Below, piece by piece: positions 1 through 9,906 of a stretch of DNA of 64,000 bases; the stretch's first letter is position 1; each line of letters opens with the position of its first letter. Under the pieces are notes generated by a model, which saw only the letters and a list, made by a program, of their open reading frames with translations, was not told the origin of the DNA and did not search any database. The stretch is from Candidatus Latescibacterota bacterium (lineage in GTDB: Bacteria > Latescibacterota > UBA2968 > GCA-2709665). The stretch is taken from the NCBI GenBank assembly GCA_965208835.1, contig OZ242358.1, forward strand, positions 3,104,001 through 3,168,000. Direction: 5' to 3'. The position numbers and the translations under genes are program-made.

Positions 1-2300
1 AGCCGCACAAACTCGTCGATCTTCATTTCAGAATAGACCTGGGGTCCGTCCAGTTCCGCCTGCAGGTCGTGCAGCTTGTTCGGGTCCGTCTCATCGGCCA
101 GAATCGTCGTCCGGTAGAAGTCAGAAAACGCATCTTGAATCGTATCGGTGTCGTTGAGAAAGTCGAAGACGAACACGTCGTGTTTCTTCGGGTGGGCCCG
201 GTTGAGCCGTGACAGCGTCTGCACGGCCTTGATGCCGGACAGCGTCTTGTCTACGTACATGGTGTGCAACAATGGCTCGTCGTAGCCGGTCTGAAATTTG
301 TCCGCGCACACCAGGAACCGGTACGGATCCTCCTGAAATCGCCTGGCGATCTGGGCCGAAGGCAGACCGTTCAGCGACGCCTCGCTTACCCTGCCGCCGC
401 CGAAGTCATGTTCGCCGGAGAACGCGACCAGCGCCTCAAATTGGCTCTTGCGCTCCTTGAGATAGTCGCGGATGGCATGGTAGTACTGAATCGCGCGCTC
501 GATGCCGTTCGTGACCACCATCGCCCGCGCCGCGCCGCCGATCTTACCCTGCTTCAGCACCTGGTCGTGGAAGTGGTCGACCATGATCTCCGCCTTAAGG
601 CGGATCGCGTGCTCGCTGCCCTCCACGAAGCGGCGCAGCTTCTTCTGCGCCTTGCGAGCGTCGAACTCGGGGTCGTCTTCGACCGTCTTTGCAAGCTTGT
701 AGTAGCTCGCCACAGGCGTATAGTGCGACAGTACGTCCAGGATGAATCCTTCCTGGATCGCCTGCTTCATGGTGTAGCTGTGGAACGCGCGATGCCTCAC
801 CGTACCGTCGGGCTGCGATTCCGGGGCGCCGAAGATCTCGAGCGTCTTGTTCTTCGGCGTGGCGGTAAACGCGAAGTAGCTGGCGTTGGGAAGCAGCTTG
901 CGCGACTCCATCAGACGGTTGATCCGGTCCTCGAAGGTATCCTGATCGTCCTCTTCGCCCGCCACCGACAGCGCCTGAGCCATCGCCGCGCTGGTGCGAC
1001 CCCCCTGGCTCGAGTGGGCTTCGTCGATGATGATGGCGAAGCGCTTCCCCCGCTGTTCATTGCCAGTCTCATCCAGAATGAACGGGAACTTCTGGACCGT
1101 GGAGATGATGATCTTCTTCCCGCTTTCGATGAATTCACGAAGATCGCCCGAGCGGTCGGCGTGTCCGACCGTCGCCGCCACCTGGGCGTACTGCTTGATC
1201 GTGTCGCGGATCTGGCGGTCCAGGATAACCCTGTCCGTGACGACAATGATCGAGTCGAAGACCGAAGCGTCGTCCTTCTCCAACCCGATCAACTGGTGCG
1301 CGAGCCATGCGATGGAGTTGCTCTTGCCGCTGCCGGCGGAATGCTGGATCAGGTAGCGCTGACCGGCGCCGCGGTCGCCCGCGTCGGCCAGCAGGCGGCG
1401 CACCACGTCGAGTTGATGGTAGCGCGGCCAGATTTGAGTCTTTCGACTCCTTCCGCTCTTTTCGTCCTTCGACGCCACCACCTGCGCGTAATTCTCGAAG
1501 ATGTTGGTAAGACTCTCCCGGGTGAGCACTTCGCGCCAGAGATAGGCGATTGAAAGACCGTCCGGATTGGGCGGGTTGCCCGCCCCGTCGTTCCAGCCGC
1601 GGTTGAAAGGCAGAAACCAGGACGCCTTACCCTTCAGATGCGTACAAAAACGCACCTCGCGTTCGTCCAACGCGAAGTGCGCGATGCACCGCCCGAACTC
1701 AAACAGCTTTTCACGCGGGTTGCGGTCCTTTTTGTACTGCCAGACCGCATCGTCCACCGTCTGTTTGGTGAGGCTGTTCTTCAACTCGAACGTGAATACC
1801 GGCAGCCCGTTGACGAACAGCCCGATGTCCAGCGCCCGCTGCGCCTCGTCCCTGCTATAGCGAAGCTGCCGCGTAACGGTATAACGATTCAGCTCGAACA
1901 ATTCCTGGGCCTGCGGATTGCCGGCCGACGGCGTGCCGTAGAACAGGTCCAGGCTCAACGCCCCGTGCTTTATGCCGTTACGCAGGACGTCGATGGTGCC
2001 GCGTTTGCTGATTTCACCCTGGAGCCGTGTCAGAAACGCGCGCCGCACGGGGCCGTCTTCGGAAAGCGGCAACGCCTCGGCGGCCTCCGGCTGGGTGGAC
2101 CGCAGGAATGCCGACAATTGCGCCAGATCGACGCAGAACTCACGGTTATAGTCGTGGTGATTGCCGCAGCTCCAGCCGACACCGCCGTATCCGGCGGGCG
2201 GTTCTCCCACGGTGCCTGAAACAGGTGGCTCGCAGCCCTGGCCCGTCAGGGCGGCGCAAATCAGGCGTTCAAGCCCGCTCTCGGTGGTGTCTGTGTTCAC
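1..2300 (-). CDS. hsdR: Type I restriction enzyme R subunit (3' end lies beyond the left window edge)
   Basis: Read manually on the minus strand; absent from the ORF track because it has no stop inside the window. GTG start at 2300 (MNTDTTESGLERLICAALTG) overlaps the upstream PIN stop (GTGA). Motifs: nuclease DIGLFVNGLPVFTFELKN, Walker A YLIQHSAGSGKSNSIAW, IIDEAHSSQ, SYFAFTATPK. Confidence 0.95.
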   Translation of the reverse strand, partial: MNTDTTESGLERLICAALTGQGCEPPVSGTVGEPPAGYGGVGWSCGNHHDYNREFCVDLAQLSAFLRSTQPEAAEALPLSEDGPVRRAFLTRLQGEISKRGTIDVLRNGIKHGALSLDLFYGTPSAGNPQAQELFELNRYTVTRQLRYSRDEAQRALDIGLFVNGLPVFTFELKNSLTKQTVDDAVWQYKKDRNPREKLFEFGRCIAHFALDEREVRFCTHLKGKASWFLPFNRGWNDGAGNPPNPDGLSIAYLWREVLTRESLTNIFENYAQVVASKDEKSGRSRKTQIWPRYHQLDVVRRLLADAGDRGAGQRYLIQHSAGSGKSNSIAWLAHQLIGLEKDDASVFDSIIVVTDRVILDRQIRDTIKQYAQVAATVGHADRSGDLREFIESGKKIIISTVQKFPFILDETGNEQRGKRFAIIIDEAHSSQGGRTSAAMAQALSVAGEEDDQDTFEDRINRLMESRKLLPNASYFAFTATPKNKTLEIFGAPESQPDGTVRHRAFHSYTMKQAIQEGFILDVLSHYTPVASYYKLAKTVEDDPEFDARKAQKKLRRFVEGSEHAIRLKAEIMVDHFHDQVLKQGKIGGAARAMVVTNGIERAIQYYHAIRDYLKERKSQFEALVAFSGEHDFGGGRVSEASLNGLPSAQIARRFQEDPYRFLVCADKFQTGYDEPLLHTMYVDKTLSGIKAVQTLSRLNRAHPKKHDVFVFDFLNDTDTIQDAFSDFYRTTILADETDPNKLHDLQAELDGPQVYSEMKIDEFVR

Positions 2301-2722
2301 TTCGGAGCCTGCTGGTGCGTGAACGGGTTGATGACCCGGAGGCCGTCGTAGTCCTGTTCTGTGCTCAAATCCTCGGAATACACGGCATCGCAGCCCAGGG
2401 CACGAGCTGCGGCGAGAATCGCGCCATCCCAGTAGGAAAGGCGAAAACGTCGGCTAATGGCAATGGCATCGAGAAATACGTCCGTCGACATGGTCTGAAT
2501 CCGGAAAAGCAGAATCGGCTCCAGGAATTGCAATGCTTTATTGCCAGAAAGACTGCCGATTCGAGTCGGCCGGGTGGCCTGGTGGTAGAACTCCTGCAGC
2601 ACCTGAACGGACGCAGCGAGGTCGGGTTCCGTCAGGACTTCCGCCGCCCGCGCCCGCTTGTCGGCCTCCCCTGGGATCTCGCTGACAGCATACAGCAGAA
2701 TGTTGGTATCTACGAATCGCAT
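2297..2722 (-). CDS. vapC: PIN-domain (VapC-like) toxin
   Basis: FVDTNILLYA...QVLQEF...SYWDGAILAAA...YSEDL..INPF gives the full PIN acidic motif set; overlaps the upstream antitoxin and downstream hsdR. Confidence 0.92.
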   Translation of the reverse strand: MRFVDTNILLYAVSEIPGEADKRARAAEVLTEPDLAASVQVLQEFYHQATRPTRIGSLSGNKALQFLEPILLFRIQTMSTDVFLDAIAISRRFRLSYWDGAILAAARALGCDAVYSEDLSTEQDYDGLRVINPFTHQQAPK

Positions 2723-3072
2723 GGTGAGGATCTGAGTGCTTCGGAGATACTGCGCTGCCGCTCCCGCTCGGCGACAGCTTCGGCCCTTGCCGCGTTGCGA
2801 TCGTACAACGCCTCCCTGGGAAGGTTGTCGGACATCCGCAACCCGATACCCTGTCTATCGAAGTCCGCGAGCACCTCCCGCAGCAGCCTGCACCGACGCT
2901 GATAGATGGTTTCGACAGACCCGGAACCGGATTCCCCATCCGTGTCCGGGTTCTCTGCCAGACTCTTCAGAAAGTCTCGCACGAGGGACGATACCGACGT
3001 GTCCAATTCTGCCGCACGGATACGCGCAAGCCGATGGGTCTCTTCGTCGACGGATACGGTGATATTTCTCAT
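2710..3072 (-). CDS. Ribbon-helix-helix antitoxin (VapB/DUF6364-like)
   Basis: MRNITVSVDEETHRLARIRAAELDTSVSSLVRDFL N-terminus and a REALYDR motif; directly upstream of and overlapping the PIN toxin. ATG at 3072 is preferred over the longer track ORF. Confidence 0.85.
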   Translation of the reverse strand: MRNITVSVDEETHRLARIRAAELDTSVSSLVRDFLKSLAENPDTDGESGSGSVETIYQRRCRLLREVLADFDRQGIGLRMSDNLPREALYDRNAARAEAVAERERQRSISEALRSSPCDS

Positions 3073-3141
3073 AGTCACAGCCTCACAGTTTCTGTGTGGC
3101 ACAATATAGGCATTTGCCGGTCGATAGGCAAATCCTGCGAG

Positions 3142-3187
3142 GGCGCAAATCAAGCGTTCTAACCGGTGTTCGAAGGTGTCAGTGTGC
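3142..3187 (-). pseudogene. Degenerate copy of the hsdR 5' end
   Basis: Translates TDTFEHRLERLICA versus HsdR TDTTESGLERLICA; 35/46 nt match 2253-2298 by manual alignment. Confidence 0.8.
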
Positions 3188-3640: not shown

Positions 3641-4516
3641 ATGAATACATCTGCGCAAACATTCTCGATAAATTCAACTCAAGAAGCCTCGTTATTCGAG
3701 GCGTTCTTGCACCGATACGCGGCTTCCTCACACCCTTCACTAGGTGCCATCATTCCCAAGACGCTTTTGTCCCGTGTGTATTGCTACTGCGCGGAACAGG
3801 ACGACTTCAGACTGTTTTATGCGATATTAGATCTTGAGCTAGTCTGGCTATTTTCGCTCAAGGATAGCCATTCCCCGGCCGGACTATGGAATCAAGTATT
3901 GTGGGAACATCGGCATAGTCCGAAAACCATACTTGAAGACTTCTCCACGTTCTGCGCTCGTATGGATATCCTAGACAGCTTCAATTCAATTTCTCTGCGA
4001 CTCCGTGCGTGTTGGGACAAGTACTTGGGAATCCTGGTTCTATTGCATGAGCCAGACAAGTACGAAGTATATGCAAGAGCAACGAGCAGGAAAAGGAAGT
4101 TTACCAAAATCGCAAGAGAATGGGAGGGTAACATATCTCGCCACATTGTCCAAGCTATCACCACAGTATTTCGAAACAGGTTAGTTCATGCGCACAAGCT
4201 CTTTGGCGACAAGCTCACGAAAAAACAGATCGAAGAAACGAACCGATGCATCGAATTCTTCCTTCATCATGAATTGAAATACCCAGATCCTGCAGTTGAT
4301 CTAATGACCCAACACATTGACTCCATCGATCAGGTCAGGACCCCGGAAGCGCACGGCACAGGGGTATTGCGAAAGTGGTCTCTCGCCTCTCTCCCGCCGG
4401 ACGTTTCCAAAGACTTCTCACTGTACAATCACTCGAATGACTTTAGCGTTTATATGAATGGATTGCACCGTTCAGTAACAGATCTTGTCGGCAACGACGC
4501 AGGATCAAGTACATAA
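3641..4516 (+). CDS. Hypothetical protein with two RxxxxH (HEPN-like) motifs
   Basis: 291-aa ORF with lower GC than its surroundings and an ATG start; contains FRNRLVH and VRTPEAH. The family assignment is inference. Confidence 0.7.
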   Translation: MNTSAQTFSINSTQEASLFEAFLHRYAASSHPSLGAIIPKTLLSRVYCYCAEQDDFRLFYAILDLELVWLFSLKDSHSPAGLWNQVLWEHRHSPKTILEDFSTFCARMDILDSFNSISLRLRACWDKYLGILVLLHEPDKYEVYARATSRKRKFTKIAREWEGNISRHIVQAITTVFRNRLVHAHKLFGDKLTKKQIEETNRCIEFFLHHELKYPDPAVDLMTQHIDSIDQVRTPEAHGTGVLRKWSLASLPPDVSKDFSLYNHSNDFSVYMNGLHRSVTDLVGNDAGSST

Positions 4517-4586: not shown

Positions 4587-6029
4587 TCATTTGGATTCGC
4601 AACGGCCGTCATGATCGATCGGATCATCTACATTGTCTTCTGCCAGTTTATCCAATTCCGGCAGTTTATCCGAAGCCCCGCGCACGTCAAGCTTACCAGT
4701 GACGACATCGGCGATCAATCGGGTGCGGTATTCGCGAAGAAGCTCGACCTCTCGATGGACGGCCGCTTGGGAACCCTCTATACCTGCCATTTCAGCTGTG
4801 ATATACTTGACGATCAGGTTTTGTTCAGTTTGCGACGGAATACCGATAGATCTTCCAGAGGTTGCCTGGAGATTGGTTCGTTGCCGGGTAGCCCCAGTCG
4901 AAAGCACGGCTGAAGCAACAGTCGAGGTAGCGGTTAGTTGGACTGCGGCAAACCTTGGTTGAATTCGAGCTTGATTTAGTCGAAACCTGAAACAATCAGC
5001 TTTCACCATTGCGGGGATGATTTTCTCCGGTGCGACACATGCTCGACCCGCTGGATGGTTGTTGTCGCCCAACCCGGCTATTAAGACGTCTCCCGAAATG
5101 ACGGAATGATCGCCCAGCGACGAATAATGTTCGGGCGAAATAAAGGCTGCGTCGGAGTCTTTGAATTCTCCATGTCCGATGTTCTGAAGCCGTACCACTC
5201 TTATTCCTTGCTCAGTATAGTGTGAAGACTTCAATCCGGAACCAAACGGCCCATCGCAACTGTCAAGGGTTACTCTCCGCAATGGAACGACATCCCAATC
5301 CTCTGGCACATTTCCCAACCACCCCACCCCGGAGTCTTTGTAAGCCAGATAGGGCTGGCCGGTTCGGACGTCGATCTGGCCCGTGACCGCCTGGTGGATG
5401 ATGGCCTGCTTTTGCTCCTCCAGCAGCGCAATCAGCTTCTGCTTCGCACGGATGTAGCGCCGGATGCGCCGGTCGGCGTGGTCAAGGAAGCGCACGATGG
5501 CGGCTTGTTCGGGTAGGGGTGGGAAAGGAACTCGTAGCTTTGATATGTCTTCTGGAGAGCATCGTTGATGGCTCTTTGTCGCCGAGTCGACTCTTGAACT
5601 CAATTCAAGCCTTACGTGCTCGGACTCATAAAGGTACCGTGCAAATTCGCCCACGCAGTATTTTGGTTCCATGGGCACAAACTCACTTGAAGCAAGTGTT
5701 GTGAGCCTGCGGTCAGGCGCTGCTAGAGCTATCGTCCCTTTTCTAGGATTCAGTTTCGACACTAGAAGCAGAATGCGGTCGACTAGAGTCTTCGATGAGT
5801 CTATAGAGAATCCCGATTCGATGACACCACCGCCAACCTCTTGGACGTTTGGAATTGAATAGTGCACAACTTGCTGTTCGGATATTTCATTTGGATCTAC
5901 AGATTGCTTAACTACGGACAGCCGACGATCAGCCCGCTGCACTTCCCATTGCTCAGGTACAAACCCTAACCATTTTTCACCGGAGTCCTTATAGCCAGGA
6001 TAGGGTTTGAGATTCGAGGTTGTCATCAT
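4587..6029 (-). CDS. hsdS: Type I R-M specificity subunit
   Basis: Repeated YKDSG..WLG.VP..W conserved regions, central PLPEQAAIVRFLD...AVTG, C-terminal IADVVTGKLDVR, and two variable TRDs. Confidence 0.95.
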   Translation of the reverse strand: MMTTSNLKPYPGYKDSGEKWLGFVPEQWEVQRADRRLSVVKQSVDPNEISEQQVVHYSIPNVQEVGGGVIESGFSIDSSKTLVDRILLLVSKLNPRKGTIALAAPDRRLTTLASSEFVPMEPKYCVGEFARYLYESEHVRLELSSRVDSATKSHQRCSPEDISKLRVPFPPLPEQAAIVRFLDHADRRIRRYIRAKQKLIALLEEQKQAIIHQAVTGQIDVRTGQPYLAYKDSGVGWLGNVPEDWDVVPLRRVTLDSCDGPFGSGLKSSHYTEQGIRVVRLQNIGHGEFKDSDAAFISPEHYSSLGDHSVISGDVLIAGLGDNNHPAGRACVAPEKIIPAMVKADCFRFRLNQARIQPRFAAVQLTATSTVASAVLSTGATRQRTNLQATSGRSIGIPSQTEQNLIVKYITAEMAGIEGSQAAVHREVELLREYRTRLIADVVTGKLDVRGASDKLPELDKLAEDNVDDPIDHDGRCESK

Positions 6030-6040
6030 CTTTCACCACT

Positions 6041-6066
6041 GTAGGGGCGACCGGCCGGTCGCCCCT
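6041..6066. repeat. REP palindrome GTAGGGGCGACCGGCCGGTCGCCCCT
   Basis: GTAG plus a GC palindrome, in the RAYT 3' end just upstream of the hsdS start. Confidence 0.9.
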
Positions 6067-6313
6067 GTGCCGATTGGATCCTGGCCATCCGAAATGGCAG
6101 GATTTTCCGGGTCCTCCGACCATCCGACCGGGTTATCCGCGATGTATTGCCGAATCCGATCCAGCGCGGATTCGTTCCGGATAATGTGTTCGTAGTAGTT
6201 GCGCTGCCAAACCGGTGTGCCGGGCGTGCCACGCATGGTGTTGATACGCTTGGTTGCTGCAGATTTAAATCCGGCCATCATGGCGCCGAGTGACCTGGGT
6301 CGCAGCCCGCCAC

Positions 6314-6337
6314 GGGCGACCGGCCGGTCGGCCCTAC
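6314..6337. repeat. REP palindrome inside the RAYT coding sequence
   Basis: GGGCGACCGGCCGGTCGGCCCTAC, read in frame as RRADRPVAR. Confidence 0.85.
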
Positions 6338-6619
6338 GGCGTTCGTCGGCAATAATAACGATACCATGAATATGGCTGGGCATGACAACCCAGGCGTCGA
6401 GATCGATCTCGATACGGACCTGCGCAGATTTTCGCCATTCCTCCTCAGCTATCCGGCCGAGCTCATTCAGCGCCACCTCACCATCTTTCACCACGCCGAA
6501 AAGTGATTTACGCCCTCTTGTGCAGACGGTGATGAAATATGCGCCCGCCCGTGAATAATCGTAGTCGCGCAATCGGGTCGACCGTCGGTGGGGTTTTTCC
6601 GGATCGCAGGAGCCGTTCA

Positions 6620-6733
6620 TTATGTCCTCAGACTCTCGTCCAACAACCCCTCCGTCTCTTTCTCAAGGGCTATAACCCGAATCTCCGCAAGCGTGCACAA
6701 CGACTCAGGAAGACATTTGAGATCCGAGGTCAT
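6620..6733 (-). pseudogene. Chimeric mini-ORF: hsdS-start remnant plus hsdM-tail remnant
   Basis: MTSDLKCLP (cf. HsdS MTTSNLKPYP) followed by TLAEIRVIALEKETEGLLDE (cf. HsdM TLEEIGADILALEKETEGLLGD); its TAA overlaps the RAYT ATG (TAATG). Confidence 0.8.
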
Positions 6734-6749
6734 CGATTCATATACCAAT

Positions 6750-6867
6750 GTAGGGCGACCGGCCGGTCGCCCCTACGGCTATGGGATCCTGGCCATCCCA
6801 ATCGGCAGGATTCTCCGGGTCTTCAGACCATCCGGCCGGGCTATAACGCGATGTATTGCCGAATCCG
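6750..6867 (-). pseudogene. Degenerate duplicate of the RAYT 3' end, including a full GTAG...CTAC REP palindrome (6750-6776)
   Basis: Direct repeat of 6041-6158, roughly 85-90% identical by eye with one frameshift. Confidence 0.88.
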
Positions 6868-6870
6868 CCC

Positions 6871-6900
6871 CCAATTCACGATGTGCCGAAAATTCCAGCT
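6871..6900 (-). pseudogene. PIN-domain fragment (SWNFRHIVNW)
   Basis: 27/30 nt match to 7540-7569 (SWNFRHMVNW of the HsdM-fused PIN). Confidence 0.8.
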
Positions 6901-6938
6901 TACGCCGAAAGCCTTCGTTGCCCTCCCGGTCTTAACCA

Positions 6939-7175
6939 TCAATCGCCCTCGGCGCCGGATCGACCGCCGTCGCTTGCCCCATCGTCCTGCCAGGGTCGCA
7001 CAACCCTGGACTTCGGGATGCGAGCGAAGTAGGGATCCTTGTGGGCAGCCGCGTTGAGCCGCCGGCGCCGCCCTTCAGGGGACACTCCCGCCAGCTTCGC
7101 GTTGATCCGGTCCCGGACCTCGCGCGTCCACTGTACGCAGTCGAACGCCTTTGCGTCGCTCTCACGCTTCTTCAT
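6939..7175 (-). CDS. Small FDCV-motif protein, putative antitoxin (copy 2)
   Basis: KAFDCVQWTREVRDRINAKLAGVS, a paralogue of 7242-7457; preceded by a PIN-tail remnant in the same register. Confidence 0.7.
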   Translation of the reverse strand: MKKRESDAKAFDCVQWTREVRDRINAKLAGVSPEGRRRRLNAAAHKDPYFARIPKSRVVRPWQDDGASDGGRSGAEGD

Positions 7176-7217
7176 TTGCAAGCTCCTTCGGACTGCAAAT
7201 GTCCACCGGGGGTACCC
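7170..7217 (-). pseudogene. Degenerate PIN C-terminal tail remnant
   Basis: GYP(P)VDICSPKELANE (one-base shift) versus the resident GYPAIDIRTPEEIVHD; the ATG of the following small ORF is embedded at the equivalent position. Confidence 0.7.
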
Positions 7218-7241
7218 GATGCGCTTCAGTTTCCCTTCGGT

Positions 7242-7457
7242 TCAGCTGTCGGAACTGTCTGTTGGCCCGTCCTGCGTGGATTTGCGTATTCGCGCGGCCA
7301 TTGCTTCCAACACGGGGTCGGAATACCGTTTGGAATTGAACCACTCTACCGTTTCCTCTGCAGTCATGCCGGCAGTTTCGGCGGTTATGCGGGCGCGGGC
7401 CTTGCGCATGAATTCGACACAGTCGAATTTCTTTTTTTTCTGGGTTTCATCAGTCAT
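7242..7457 (-). CDS. Small FDCV-motif protein, putative antitoxin (copy 1)
   Basis: KKKFDCVEFMRKARARITAETAGMTAEE; start overlaps the HsdM-PIN stop region, a typical arrangement for the downstream partner of this PIN subfamily. Confidence 0.75.
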   Translation of the reverse strand: MTDETQKKKKFDCVEFMRKARARITAETAGMTAEETVEWFNSKRYSDPVLEAMAARIRKSTQDGPTDSSDS

Positions 7458-9891
7458 GGACGATTTCCTCCGGCGTGCGAATGTCAATAGCGGGGTATCC
7501 GCTTTTGCGATTGACCTCGTTGTAGGCTCTGATACGCCGCCAATTCACCATGTGCCTGAAATTCCAGCTTGCCAGAACGTCTGCCTCGGCCAGAGTCGCG
7601 ATGGCAATATGCAGCGCATCGGTCCGGTTTGCCCCACCTATGGCGCCAGCCGCTATGTAGGCATCAGCAAGCTCTCTTGCTTCTCTTGAAACGGCGAGTG
7701 TTTCCGTGTGTCCCTGGGGAACGATGCTGGCCGCCCGCCTGACGGGGGGCGAAGCATCCGCGAGTTCATCCAGGGTGATGTTCGAGATGAGCATCGTGGC
7801 GTCACCCTGGCGAAAGACCTCGAACAACTGCGTCGATTGTTCCCGGAATTCATCGTCGAGACACCCGCCGATCACAGAGGTATCCACGTAGATGCGCGGC
7901 TTGCCGTACAAAGCCGGCGGTTCGCGTATCAACGGCAGATCGCCGAGCAGCCCCTCAGTTTCTTTCTCCAGCGCCAGAATATCCGCACCGATTTCCTCCA
8001 GGGTCCGCATGGGCTGGGGCTTGTAGAAGTATCGCGTGAAGCTGATCTCATAGCCAACTTTTACGCTGTCGGCTTGATACCAGGCGTCAGCGGCGTAGGG
8101 AAGGACTTCCCGCCCCAGGAACGCTTCGATGCCGCCTTCCTCCTGCAGCGGAATCTGCTCGGTGTCGCGCAGTTCGGTGTCCGGTTCGTACTCGACGACC
8201 GCAGGTCTGCCGTTAACGGTAGCCTCAAACCTGCCACGAAGCGGGTCGGCTTCCGTGCCCCTCTTGTGGATCTTCCTGATGACAGGCGGCGCGCTTTCGC
8301 TGCGTTCGCTACTATCCTTGAGTTTCTTGATCTCGGTGGCCTTGTAGGCGCGGTCGGGGTCGATCCCGTCGAGCCGAAGCGGCCGCTCGACCGTCACCTT
8401 CCAGTAGCCGAAGGCGGCGTTGTCGAAGATCTTGCTCTGTTCGGTTTCCTCGAAGGCCAGGAATGTGTCGCAGATGCGCCGGATGTCCTCCTCGCCAAGT
8501 TCGCAGTTCTTCTTGCCCAAATTCTTTCGCAGCGGCCGGTACCACTCGGTGGCATCGATCAACTGCACCTTGCCCCGGCGATGCTCCGGCTTCCGGTTGG
8601 TGATCACCCACACGTAGGTCGCGATGCCGGTGTTGTAGAACATATTGAGCGGTAGCGCGACGATCGCCTCTAGCCAGTCGTTTTCAATGATCCAGCGCCG
8701 GATATTGCTCTCGCCCTGCCCGGCATCGCCGGTGAACAACGAACTGCCGTTGTGCACCTCGGCGATGCGGCTGCCGCCCTCCTTCATCTTGGACAGCTTG
8801 TTGGCGAGGAAGAGCATCTGCCCGTCGCTGGACCGGGTAACGAGCGAATACTCGGGATCGTCCGCGTGCTCGATCACGAACCGCGGGTCCCGCATTTCCT
8901 TCTTGCCGCCCATGCGCTCCAGGTCGGTCTTCCAACTCTTCCCGTAGGGCGGATTGGAGAGCATGAAGTCGAACTCGCGGGACGGGAAGGCGTCGTTGGC
9001 CAGTGTGGAATGCTCCGGACCGCCGACGATGTTATCCGCCGCGTCCCCTTCACCCTTCAGTAGCAGGTCGGCCTTGCAGATGGCGTAGGTCTCGGCGTTG
9101 ATTTCCTGTCCGTACAGGTGCGTTGAGACCTGCTTGTCGCGCTCGGCGGCGAGTTGCTGAAGGACCTCTTCGGCCACGGTCAACATGCCGCCTGTGCCGC
9201 ACGCGCCGTCGTAGATCAGGTAGGTGCTGGATGTAATCTCGTCAGCGACGGGCAGGAAAACCAGCTTCGCCATCAGGGTTACCGCGTCGCGCGGCGTCCA
9301 GTGTTCTCCGGCCTCCTCGTTGTTCTCCTCGTTGAAACGCCGGATCAGCTCCTCGAAGATCGTGCCCATGCCGTGGTTGTCCAGGCCGGGGTGTCTGACC
9401 GAGCCATCGCCGTTGTGCACCGGGGCCGGGCTCAGGTTGACGTCGGGTGTGGTCAGCTTTTCGATCAACGTGCCCAGGGCATCGGCCCTGGAAAGACGGG
9501 GGACCTGGTTTCGGAATTCGAAGTTCTCGAGGATATCCTGGACGTTTGGCGAGAACCCGTCCAGCCAGGCCCTGAAGTCGGCCTCGAGCTGCTGGCGGTT
9601 CGCACGGGCGCGAAGGTCGCGCAGGGTGAACCTGGAGGTATTGTAGAAATCCTGCCCGGCCGCCTGCTTCAATGGCTCCTCCTGGTCGACCAGGCGGATC
9701 TTATCGAGGGAAGCCTGCATGTCCAGGACCGCCTGTTTGCTATCCTCCAGTACCGCGTCGAGACGGCGCAGCACGGTCATCGGCAGGATCACGTCGCGAT
9801 ACTTGCCGCGCACGTACAGGTCGCGGAGGACGTCGTCCGCGATGCCCCAAATGTAGTTCGCGATCCAGTTCAGGTTGGCGCTGGTTGCCAT
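7450..9891 (-). CDS. hsdM: Type I R-M N6-adenine methyltransferase subunit with a C-terminal PIN ribonuclease domain
   Basis: IWGIADDVLRD N-terminus, motif I YDGACGTGGML, catalytic NPPY, GYEISFTRYFY...ALEKETEGLL tail, then in-frame RIYVDTSVIGG...TLDEL...DALHIA...SWNFRH PIN domain. Confidence 0.95.
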   Translation of the reverse strand: MATSANLNWIANYIWGIADDVLRDLYVRGKYRDVILPMTVLRRLDAVLEDSKQAVLDMQASLDKIRLVDQEEPLKQAAGQDFYNTSRFTLRDLRARANRQQLEADFRAWLDGFSPNVQDILENFEFRNQVPRLSRADALGTLIEKLTTPDVNLSPAPVHNGDGSVRHPGLDNHGMGTIFEELIRRFNEENNEEAGEHWTPRDAVTLMAKLVFLPVADEITSSTYLIYDGACGTGGMLTVAEEVLQQLAAERDKQVSTHLYGQEINAETYAICKADLLLKGEGDAADNIVGGPEHSTLANDAFPSREFDFMLSNPPYGKSWKTDLERMGGKKEMRDPRFVIEHADDPEYSLVTRSSDGQMLFLANKLSKMKEGGSRIAEVHNGSSLFTGDAGQGESNIRRWIIENDWLEAIVALPLNMFYNTGIATYVWVITNRKPEHRRGKVQLIDATEWYRPLRKNLGKKNCELGEEDIRRICDTFLAFEETEQSKIFDNAAFGYWKVTVERPLRLDGIDPDRAYKATEIKKLKDSSERSESAPPVIRKIHKRGTEADPLRGRFEATVNGRPAVVEYEPDTELRDTEQIPLQEEGGIEAFLGREVLPYAADAWYQADSVKVGYEISFTRYFYKPQPMRTLEEIGADILALEKETEGLLGDLPLIREPPALYGKPRIYVDTSVIGGCLDDEFREQSTQLFEVFRQGDATMLISNITLDELADASPPVRRAASIVPQGHTETLAVSREARELADAYIAAGAIGGANRTDALHIAIATLAEADVLASWNFRHMVNWRRIRAYNEVNRKSGYPAIDIRTPEEIVHD

Positions 9892-9906
9892 CGGAATTCC
9901 TTGCAC

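Follow-up and report, generated by a model that had tools for sequence, protein, structure and literature searches.

The PIN-fold nucleases of VapBC-type (type II) toxin-antitoxin modules share an Asp/Glu/Asp pocket with the protein examined here, but the VapB-type antitoxin is encoded upstream of the toxin and carries a DNA-binding domain (AbrB, RHH, Phd or HTH). A link between RNase-type effectors and restriction is known mainly from one worked example, the PrrC anticodon nuclease of the EcoprrI type Ic restriction locus, which is physically and genetically tied to a type I hsdMSR system. PrrC – a separate ABC-ATPase-HEPN protein that is held latent by the restriction complex itself and has no antitoxin – is read as a second line of defence, an 'RM guardian', released when restriction is inhibited (PMC3710099, PMC3506569, PMC12707154). 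More generally, toxin-like domains fused to or embedded in restriction-modification (R-M) systems (DUF4145 fused to HsdR; HEPN, Sir2 and ParB domains; PIN genes coupled to type I subunits) illustrate the principle of coupling immunity with suicide or dormancy modules (PMC3506569). Those reports concern HsdR fusions, other folds or separate PIN genes, and PMC3506569 stresses that immunity systems lack typical antitoxins. Section 17 of the PIN classification paper (PMC5499597) states that direct interaction between toxin-antitoxin and R-M systems 'has not been shown yet' and mentions no HsdM fusion. A further comparison is with polymorphic toxin systems (CdiA-CT/CdiI, Rhs-CT/RhsI), in which a conserved body carries a variable C-terminal toxin domain, a cognate protective gene lies directly downstream and co-varies with it, and orphan toxin fragments accumulate in arrays together with intact protective genes.

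Here we examine a type I restriction locus from a Candidatus Latescibacterota bacterium (the window: 64,000 nucleotides, positions 3,104,001 to 3,168,000 of contig OZ242358.1, assembly GCA_965208835.1) in which the methylase subunit is fused to a predicted VapC-like PIN domain. In contrast to VapBC the gene order is reversed, the nuclease coming first; in contrast to PrrC the effector is covalently attached to HsdM and has its own dedicated predicted inhibitor gene.

Results

The fusion is real. A single open frame runs from 9906 to 7450 on the minus strand and encodes 818 aa from a GTG; homologues, however, start at the position of the ATG at 9891 (813 aa), the start given in the original prediction. 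Pfam recognises HsdM_N (PF12161, residues 15-151, E 8.6e-20) and N6_Mtase (PF02384, residues 177-489, E 1e-52), and with hsdS and hsdR on the same strand the gene qualifies as a type I methylase subunit. The landmarks from the HsdM C-terminus into the PIN domain are all present – YFYKPQ at residue 626, LEKETEGLLGD at 646, LPLIRE at 657, YVDTS at 673, TLDEL at 711, DALHIA at 763 and SWNFRH at 780 – with no stop between them. The locus is organised as follows.

7450..9891 (-): hsdM::PIN fusion gene, likely start the ATG at 9891 (813 aa), longest frame from the GTG at 9906, stop at 7450-7452.
7938..9891 (-): HsdM part, with HsdM_N, N6_Mtase (NPPYG and DGACGTGG motifs) and a C-terminal helical region ending in ...ALEKETEGLLGD; unfused relatives stop 4-17 residues after EGLL.
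7903..7937 (-): linker LPLIREPPALYG (residues 657-668, about 12 residues), with in-frame TTG codons at 7932 and 7911.
7453..7902 (-): predicted PIN-fold (VapC-like) domain, residues 669-818; conserved residues D19, D28, E58, D107, H110 and S-W-N126-F, numbered on the 162-aa piece 7453-7938.
7242..7457 (-): cognate small partner FDCV1, 71 aa, alpha type, a predicted three-helix protein whose ATG overlaps the PIN stop (ATGACTGA).
6939..7181 (-): orphan partner FDCV2, beta type; its cognate PIN is the live one in a sister species (locus L166).
6850..6903 (-): relic of a PIN 3' end (VSWNFRHIVNWGRIR; repeat D4, profile positions 113-130), joined to a relic of a RAYT 3' end.
6753..6844 (-): relic copy of the RAYT gene's 3' end plus a REP-like palindrome GGGCGACCGGCCGGTCGCCC (repeats D1, D2 and I1-I3).
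6620..6748 (-): relic of an unfused-type hsdM 3' end (...LAEIRVIALEKETEGLLDESLRT, then two stops), by eye roughly three-quarters identical to the live end over about 60 nt.
6033..6620 (-): REP-associated tyrosine transposase (RAYT)-like gene, 195 aa, between the cassette array and hsdS; NF047646 69.3 bits, below the cutoff of 80, and a weak Y1_Tnp match.
4587..6029 (-): hsdS, 480 aa (Methylase_S), in the same position in related loci.
3..2300 (-): hsdR (HSDR_N, SWI2_SNF2, ResIII and T1R_D3-like), running off the window end.

In order to discount the possibility of a sequencing or assembly artefact – a condition under which the fusion was to be rejected – we compared the junction with assembled contigs. 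A 2039-nt Logan contig present in two runs (X1 and X3) covers 7200-8182 with 0 differences, although that sample may be the source of the window and is thus not independent. Contigs (again not raw reads) from a second study bridge 7862-8172 with substitutions only and no indel (run X5, record 21; run X7, records 28 and 29). Nor is the fusion a one-off, as the original prediction had feared it might be: 178 proteins of 449-1432 aa match the PIN part at E<=1e-3, and 119 of the 120 listed carry N6_Mtase. Among the best 80 genome loci, intact fusions occur in 6, in records named Latescibacterota, Gammaproteobacteria, Ca. Multivorans, Bryobacterales, Acidobacteria and Thermoanaerobaculia, while a seventh has a frameshifted hsdM; within the window's genus, fused frames of 827-835 aa occur in 9 of 15 genomes. 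The frame is kept across linkers of 19-47 residues in several sequence classes (among the 88 of 120 relatives that could be parsed).

One correction to the original prediction, which saw no convincing internal ATG with a ribosome-binding site, concerns the in-frame TTG codons at 7932 and 7911. Position 7932 is ATG/Met in many relatives, being Met in the LPMVREP linker class and reading ATG in contigs of the second study, and free-standing relatives start 2-13 residues before the first strand. Internal initiation therefore cannot be excluded, and a free PIN might be the functional product with the long fusion a minor or inactive by-product. We regard this as improbable. Other linker classes have no Met or conserved start at this position (for example GGLLGGEP...RKLRVYADTS and AGLPLLREPRASDGKLRIYADTS), the purine-rich GAGGGG ends 15 nt before the TTG, and a consensus scan of 7900-8300 found no sigma-70-like site (weak evidence either way); moreover, with no stop codon present, the full-length protein must be made whatever else is.

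Identification of the C-terminal domain as a PIN rests on fold more than on sequence. The window's copy scores below both Pfam cutoffs (PIN_3, PF13470, 17.8 bits against 27; PIN, PF01850, 16.6 against 23.6), albeit over the full profile length; a sequence search of the PDB returned only chance-level rows, and NCBIfam and PADLOC have nothing for the PIN or the partners. Relatives fare better: locus L005 scores 27.5 bits, 40 of 69 family members hit PF01850 at E<=0.01, and a homologue on a Leptospira plasmid is annotated in RefSeq as a VapC family toxin. An AlphaFold2 model has pLDDT 94.6 (57 for the first 10 residues, in the linker) and gives 29 Foldseek matches in the PDB at E<=1e-3, the top ones being VapC toxins (6ifc, 3zvk, 5ecd, 3tnd; E 4e-5, TMt 0.64-0.68). 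The ABC-ATPase plus HEPN architecture of PrrC is absent: Pfam finds no such domains on the fusion. Among the 119 fused sequences D19 is kept in 119, D28 in 116, E58 in 118, D107 in 116 and N126 in 119, and D19, E58 and D107 are present in 94-98 of 99 free-standing members. The usual fourth acidic residue is Asn (N126), whereas four acidic residues are stated to be needed for activity (PMC5499597); D28 is a candidate for the fourth, on conservation alone.

The PIN belongs to a large family of free-standing ~150-aa VapC-like proteins, overwhelmingly unrelated to restriction genes. In 74 of 80 loci it is followed at once, on the same strand, by a small partner of 50-80 aa. This partner is not a VapB-type antitoxin: it lies downstream, has no Pfam or NCBIfam family and no DNA-binding domain, and its predicted three-helix fold finds no PDB match at E<=1e-3. 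A protein atlas returned only 'hypothetical protein' clusters for the partner and PIN-bearing clusters for the domain; a phage collection gave no match. A predicted complex – a model only – places the partner over the D19/E58/D107 pocket, with an interface including PIN residues 19-21, 58, 102-107 and 125-126 (ipSAE 0.87/0.88/0.88, best control 0.01, partner pLDDT 79, runs sharing at least 98% of contacts; the mark was reached by 58 of 80 solved complexes and 2 of 110 mismatched pairs). Such a placement would fit an antitoxin-like inhibitor.

A further possibility is that the domain is not a toxin, but a non-catalytic or DNA-directed PIN-like module serving the methylase or restriction complex, for example in dimerisation or DNA-end processing, with the small protein as a cofactor. 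The Asn at the fourth position, the existence of DNA nucleases among PIN-like folds (PMC5499597) and the absence of any antitoxin family for the partner are compatible with this view. It is nonetheless very unlikely given the free-standing nature of most copies, the near invariance of D19, E58 and D107, a partner modelled on – not beside – that pocket, and arrays (below) in which the PIN is truncated while the partner stays intact.

Comparison of 9 loci from the genus shows that the 3' end of hsdM varies as a cassette. HsdM is 90-97% identical in all pairs, but PIN and first partner form four co-varying types, 80-97% / 73-100% identical within a type and 52-64% / 33-54% between types; the types are represented by alpha from the window, beta from L166, gamma from L170 and delta from L169. 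Behind the live pairs these loci hold 16 orphan partners, 11 truncated PIN 3' relics and one complete spare cassette (in locus L169) that carries an hsdM 3' stub, 146 of 170 nt identical to the live end; a relic PIN matches the type of the orphan partner behind it. Arrays also occur in loci L016, L026 and L046. The window's second small gene is one such orphan, of another cassette type than the live pair, a point that – like the exchange site itself – escaped the original prediction.

The module is dispensable for restriction as such. Of the 120 closest HsdM clusters, at 87-98% identity, 35 are fused and 85 unfused. Of 80 metagenome loci (the best 80 of 587, found with an unfused query and hence biased towards unfused forms), 77 were unfused with no PIN or partner within 3 kb, one had a PIN about 2 kb downstream, one was truncated and one lacked the hsdM end. 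A Fitch count on the HsdM tree gave 12 fused/unfused switches, against a shuffled mean of 30.4 and minimum of 25; as one protein was misclassified by our motif and branch supports are low, this is no more than a hint of several switches. Many independent fusion events are not supported: the fused PINs form essentially one clade, the most recent common ancestor of the 119 fused sequences holding 148 of 253 leaves, only 8 of them free-standing, while 91 of 99 free-standing ones lie outside it (the trees rest on short, similar sequences with weak support). Wide occurrence thus partly reflects the spread of one mobile lineage and not repeated independent selection.

Discussion

The observation that an HsdM and a PIN domain share one reading frame is confirmed. 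The interpretation placed upon it – an RNase toxin tethered to the M2S1/R2M2S1 complex, with the downstream FDCV protein as likely antitoxin – is partly supported. Our data establish a conserved fusion, a conserved and co-varying neighbour and a cassette-like 3' end; RNase activity and its metal dependence, the RNA target, toxicity, binding and neutralisation by the partner, tethering to the complex, latency imposed by that complex and any cross-talk with restriction are inferred from sequence and models alone. A literature search found no description of an HsdM-PIN fusion, although Supplementary Figure S7 of PMC5499597, which shows PIN/R-M operons, might include a fused case.

We consider it most likely (a probability of about 0.6) that the gene encodes a working-looking type I methylase subunit with a VapC-like PIN nuclease domain at its C-terminus, and that the PIN and the small gene overlapping its stop codon are a captured copy of a widespread two-gene module: nuclease first, small three-helix inhibitor second. 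In this view the inhibitor is predicted to sit on the catalytic pocket and keep the nuclease silent, and, since the module is attached at the conserved last helix of HsdM, each methylase or restriction complex would carry two PIN domains. Recombination in the conserved hsdM 3' region would bring in a new linker-PIN-partner unit, the old unit being pushed downstream, where it loses the catalytic part of its PIN but keeps its inhibitor gene: an outcome that selection against an un-neutralised toxin would leave. The most likely function, by inference, is a toxin-antitoxin-type effector tied to the restriction system, which would either stabilise the locus by addiction or act as a second-line, abortive-infection-type response when the complex is disturbed, working like PrrC with EcoprrI; no trigger is known.

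A less likely alternative is that the pair is a selfish passenger: an addiction module riding at the 3' end of a very mobile hsdM lineage, fused once by loss of a stop and start, and tolerated because the domains fold independently, without signalling between restriction complex and nuclease. The single clade of fused PINs is in accord with this, as are a linker class (GEIVGTQPHTRAKKLRVYADTS) that reads like an unfused HsdM end run on into a PIN gene, the solitary state of the module in most loci, its position beside a plasmid replication gene in Leptospira, and orphan arrays, which addiction alone would leave. But the frame is kept across many linker classes and lengths, in 119 of the 120 listed clusters, and the spare cassette in L169 carries its hsdM stub in frame with the PIN, so that exchange preserves the fusion and does not produce a separate gene. 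Furthermore, no unfused hsdM directly followed by a separate PIN gene was seen among the 80 metagenome loci.

The layout resembles polymorphic toxin-immunity loci in its conserved body, variable C-terminal domain, co-varying downstream gene and orphan arrays, at least one orphan keeping a stub of the body as a recombination handle. Here, however, the body is a cytoplasmic DNA methylase, not a secreted or surface protein; no delivery to other cells is expected and we do not claim membership of that class. The force that drives diversification must thus differ (phage counter-measures or addiction). A more speculative reading, which we think rather unlikely, is that HsdM serves as the scaffold of an intracellular polymorphic toxin-immunity system, with interchangeable PIN-inhibitor cassettes swapped onto the methylase through its conserved 3' end and spare or displaced ones archived downstream. 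The tethered nuclease would guard the restriction complex: when a phage anti-restriction factor or loss of the locus disturbs the complex or the labile inhibitor, the PIN would cleave RNA and stop the cell, and cassette turnover would be driven by phage-encoded inhibitor mimics.

Restriction-linked toxins are already known; what differs here is a predicted PIN effector fused to HsdM that keeps its own putative inhibitor. These proteins are widespread in public data but annotated simply as DNA methylases, and as neither the window's PIN nor the partner has a Pfam-passing or PADLOC model, censuses of defence systems miss them. Whether toxin-antitoxin modules talk directly to restriction enzymes becomes directly testable with a covalent HsdM-PIN protein: the partners are fixed in one polypeptide, the putative inhibitor is identifiable, and nature supplies four matched PIN-inhibitor types on nearly the same methylase. 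The fusion points to a possible second layer of defence or addiction built onto a restriction enzyme, while the orphan arrays give a genomic read-out of addiction and extend the cassette-displacement logic of secreted polymorphic toxins to a cytoplasmic defence enzyme.

The hsdM::PIN open reading frame

The observation at the heart of the original prediction – an HsdM that continues in frame into a PIN ribonuclease domain – holds. A single open frame runs through the HsdM end and the C-terminal domain without an intervening stop, and the sequence strings on which the prediction rested (the HsdM C-terminus, the linker, and the motifs YVDTS, TLDEL, DALHIA and SWNFRH) are all present where it had placed them. 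Pfam detects HsdM_N (residues 15-151) and N6_Mtase (residues 177-489), and the AdoMet and NPPYG motifs can be read in the translation. The genes of the operon, together with two features that lie among them, are as follows.

9906-7450, minus strand: hsdM::PIN, 818 aa from a GTG; homologues begin at the position of the ATG at 9891 (MATSANLNW...), which gives 813 aa and matches the 812-813 aa of the closest relatives. The next gene starts inside the stop region (ATGACTGA).
4587-6029, minus strand: hsdS.
3641-4516, plus strand: an ORF of 291 aa on the opposite strand inside the operon, in a low-GC patch (0.469, against 0.604 for the whole window), with no Pfam or PADLOC match.
2297-3153, minus strand: a canonical-looking pair of VapB-like (2710-3153) and VapC PIN (2297-2722, MRFVDTNILLYAVS...) genes between hsdS and hsdR.
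3-2300, minus strand: hsdR, cut by the window end.

The operon therefore carries two different PIN systems; pairs similar to that at 2297-3153 appear at the same place in two other loci, L001 and L002.

A predicted PIN fold

Evidence that the C-terminal part is a PIN domain came firstly from profile searches. On its own, the 162-residue piece (window:7453-7938) matches PIN_3 and PIN over their full length, but at 17.8 and 16.6 bits, below the curated cutoffs, and searches of NCBIfam, PADLOC and the sequences of the PDB gave nothing. A search of 1.84 billion representative proteins, however, found 3437 relatives at E<=1e-3 and 1106 at E<=1e-10, and most of the 150 listed are free-standing proteins of about 150 aa that begin MK.R[IV]Y[VIA]DTSV. 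An alignment of 69 members shows an invariant E58, nearly invariant D19, D28, D107 and H110, and an S-W-N-F motif; of these 69, 40 hit PF01850 and 29 hit PF13470 at E<=0.01, and one relative passes the PIN cutoff (27.5 bits). Finally, an AlphaFold2 model built with this alignment has a pLDDT of 94.6, and Foldseek against the PDB returns VapC toxins first (6ifc, 3zvk, 5ecd, 3tnd; E from 4e-5, TMt 0.64-0.68). The predicted fold and the family are therefore PIN/VapC-like, although the usual fourth acidic residue is an Asn.

Conservation of the fusion

In order to ask whether the fusion is more than a one-off, we searched the PIN part against proteins of 449-1432 aa. This gave 178 hits at E<=1e-3, and 119 of the 120 listed carry N6_Mtase. 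Among the best 80 genome loci for the PIN family six hold an intact hsdM::PIN frame – in records named Latescibacterota, Gammaproteobacteria, Ca. Multivorans, Bryobacterales, Acidobacteria and Thermoanaerobaculia – and one further locus has the same arrangement with a frameshifted hsdM. In the window's own genus, 9 of 15 genomes have a fused frame of 827-835 aa, whereas none of the 4 genomes of other genera in the family has one and none of 12 genomes of a neighbouring family does; the high-scoring full-length matches there are free-standing, at 153-160 aa. The reading frame is kept through linkers of 19-47 residues that fall into several sequence classes (88 of 120 could be parsed), and the candidate catalytic residues are kept in the fused proteins: D19 in 119 of 119, D28 in 116, E58 in 118, D107 in 116 and N126 in 119. 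The junction itself was examined in Logan contigs: those from the probable source sample reproduce 7200-8182 exactly, while contigs from a second study bridge the junction with substitutions but no indel.

Further members of the PIN family were met in other settings. One locus, L032, holds a 649-codon stop-to-stop frame (1049-2995) that ends in a PIN of this family, but its N-terminal ~500 residues have no Pfam hit and no HsdM similarity, such that it may be another fusion partner or just an open frame. The window's genome has a second, divergent free-standing PIN of this family (L082; G000:C1:2405896-2406351, minus strand; motif TWNCEH), followed by a 65-codon frame that the profile of the downstream partner does not recognise.

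The small downstream gene

A profile built from the two small genes downstream of the window's PIN (FDCV1 and FDCV2) and their first hits finds a relative directly downstream on the same strand in 74 of the 80 loci; one of the six misses is cut off by the end of its contig. The start usually overlaps or abuts the PIN stop. An alignment of this partner family shows the shared pattern K..FD.V..(M)R..R. It has no Pfam, NCBIfam or PADLOC family, is predicted as three helices (pLDDT 84.4), and has no PDB fold match at E<=1e-3. In a Leptospira interrogans plasmid (L164) a free-standing PIN-partner module (40.8% identity in the PIN) lies directly after the replication-initiation gene – a position typical of plasmid-stabilising modules – and there the PIN is named a VapC family toxin and the 63-aa partner 'hypothetical protein'.

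The hypothesis that the partner binds the PIN was examined by modelling the complex. The model supports binding, although it remains a model and not a measurement: ipSAE was 0.87, 0.88 and 0.88, the best of three controls was 0.01, partner pLDDT was 79, and the runs share at least 98% of contacts. The mark was reached by 58 of 80 solved complexes and 2 of 110 mismatched pairs, counts that hold only roughly here because our own alignments were used. The modelled interface includes PIN residues 19-21, 58, 102-107 and 125-126, which is the catalytic face.

Cassette behaviour

The organisation described in this section formed no part of the original prediction. Across 104 full-length fused relatives the HsdM part is 75-98% identical to the window's in all but two, while the PIN part is 52-92% identical, with clear discordance: four fused proteins (P0048, P0050, P0051 and P0053), for example, are 93% identical in HsdM and 53-55% in PIN. 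Two others (P0080 and P0097) carry a PIN 53-54% identical to the window's on an HsdM that is only 46% identical; the PIN therefore also occurs on a distant HsdM lineage. The 120 clusters closest in the HsdM part (87-98% identity) comprise 35 fused and 85 unfused proteins, clusters at 90% identity mix both forms, and the unfused ones end ...ETEGLLGEIVGIQP.

We fetched the eight other fused loci of the genus (L165-L172) and annotated them with three profiles. Every one of the nine loci has hsdM::PIN plus its partner, followed by further modules: in total 16 orphan partner copies, 11 PIN fragments that keep only about the last 20-40 residues, and one complete spare cassette. In the latter (L169:3156-3984) 58 hsdM 3′ codons (146 of 170 nt identical to the live end), a linker, a full PIN and a partner lie in order, the first three in one open frame of 249 aa whose PIN is delta-unrelated (see the types below); if expressed, it would be a PIN carrying the HsdM tail helix. 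Relics of unfused-type hsdM 3′ ends lie further downstream in five of these loci and in the window.

Pairwise comparison shows HsdM at 90-97% identity in all pairs, whereas PIN and first partner form four co-varying types, with identities of 80-97% (PIN) and 73-100% (partner) within a type and of 52-64% and 33-54% between types.

Types of PIN and first partner in the nine fused loci of the genus
alpha: the window, L165, L167 and L168
beta: L166
gamma: L170, L171 and L172
delta: L169

A relic PIN matches the type of the orphan partner behind it. The L166 relic is 97% identical to the live alpha PIN of L165 and precedes an alpha partner, while the L170 relic is 95% identical to the live beta PIN of L166 and precedes a beta partner. 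In the window FDCV1 is the cognate alpha partner, and the following features lie beyond it.

6939-7181: FDCV2, an orphan beta partner.
6850-6903: a PIN 3′ relic joined to a RAYT relic.
6033-6844, minus strand: a RAYT-like gene with REP-like palindromes (GGGCGACCGGCCGGTCGCCC) and duplicated RAYT 3′ fragments, among the cassettes.
6620-6748: an unfused-type hsdM 3′ relic.

RAYT-like sequence of this kind lies among the cassettes in L165-L171 as well as in the window. The junction of a PIN 3′ relic to a RAYT 3′ relic recurs in the window, L165, L167 and L168, and may be inherited or may arise by microhomology (RIR.Y). Outside the genus, loci L016, L026 and L046 also carry extra partners. L016 and L026 each have a second near-full PIN, and in these orphan modules (L016:4952-5833; L026:4640-5455) a near-full PIN and a partner-like sequence lie in one open frame with no stop between them, giving a possible single-chain PIN::partner.

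On a tree of PIN domains the fused ones form essentially one clade. Its MRCA spans 148 of 253 leaves – 119 fused, 21 fragments or other forms and 8 free-standing – and of the 99 free-standing proteins 91 lie outside it. The simplest history is therefore one old fusion, followed by exchange of cassettes among hsdM alleles.

Relation to described systems

Full-text literature searches, which did not reach supplementary material such as Figure S7 of PMC5499597, found no description of an HsdM-PIN fusion or of its cassette arrays. The PIN classification paper states that direct TA-RM interaction 'has not been shown yet' (PMC5499597, section 17). A paper on the coupling of immunity and suicide lists toxin-like domains within R-M systems, including DUF4145 fused to HsdR, and notes that immunity systems lack typical antitoxins (PMC3506569). 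A survey of HEPN domains describes HEPN-RM links and PrrC (PMC3710099), while a preprint on embedded defence and a 2025 review describe PrrC as an embedded or 'guardian' system. The fusion is akin to restriction-linked toxin modules and to VapC-like toxin-antitoxin pairs; it has an unexpected polymorphic-cassette organisation and is fully open to simple experiments.

How the fusion most likely works

The original interpretation – an RNase toxin tethered to the M2S1/R2M2S1 complex, with the downstream protein as the likely antitoxin – is only partly supported. What our computations show is a conserved fusion, a domain with a predicted PIN fold and a preserved acidic pocket, a dedicated and co-varying small neighbour that is modelled onto that pocket, and the displacement of cassettes, which has left truncated nuclease fragments but intact partner genes. 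That the PIN is a toxin-type RNase kept silent by the partner is, by contrast, inference. It is likewise inferred that each M2S1 or R2M2S1 complex would carry two copies, because the PIN hangs from the last helix of HsdM and the subunit stoichiometry is as given in the literature (PMC12707154). The restriction complex may control the nuclease as EcoprrI controls PrrC (PMC3710099, PMC3506569, PMC12707154), or the module may be only an addiction passenger. The arrays, in this inferred view, are what post-segregational killing predicts: a recombinant that loses an old toxin gene would survive only if it keeps the old inhibitor gene, together with the PIN 3′ end that overlaps that gene's start.
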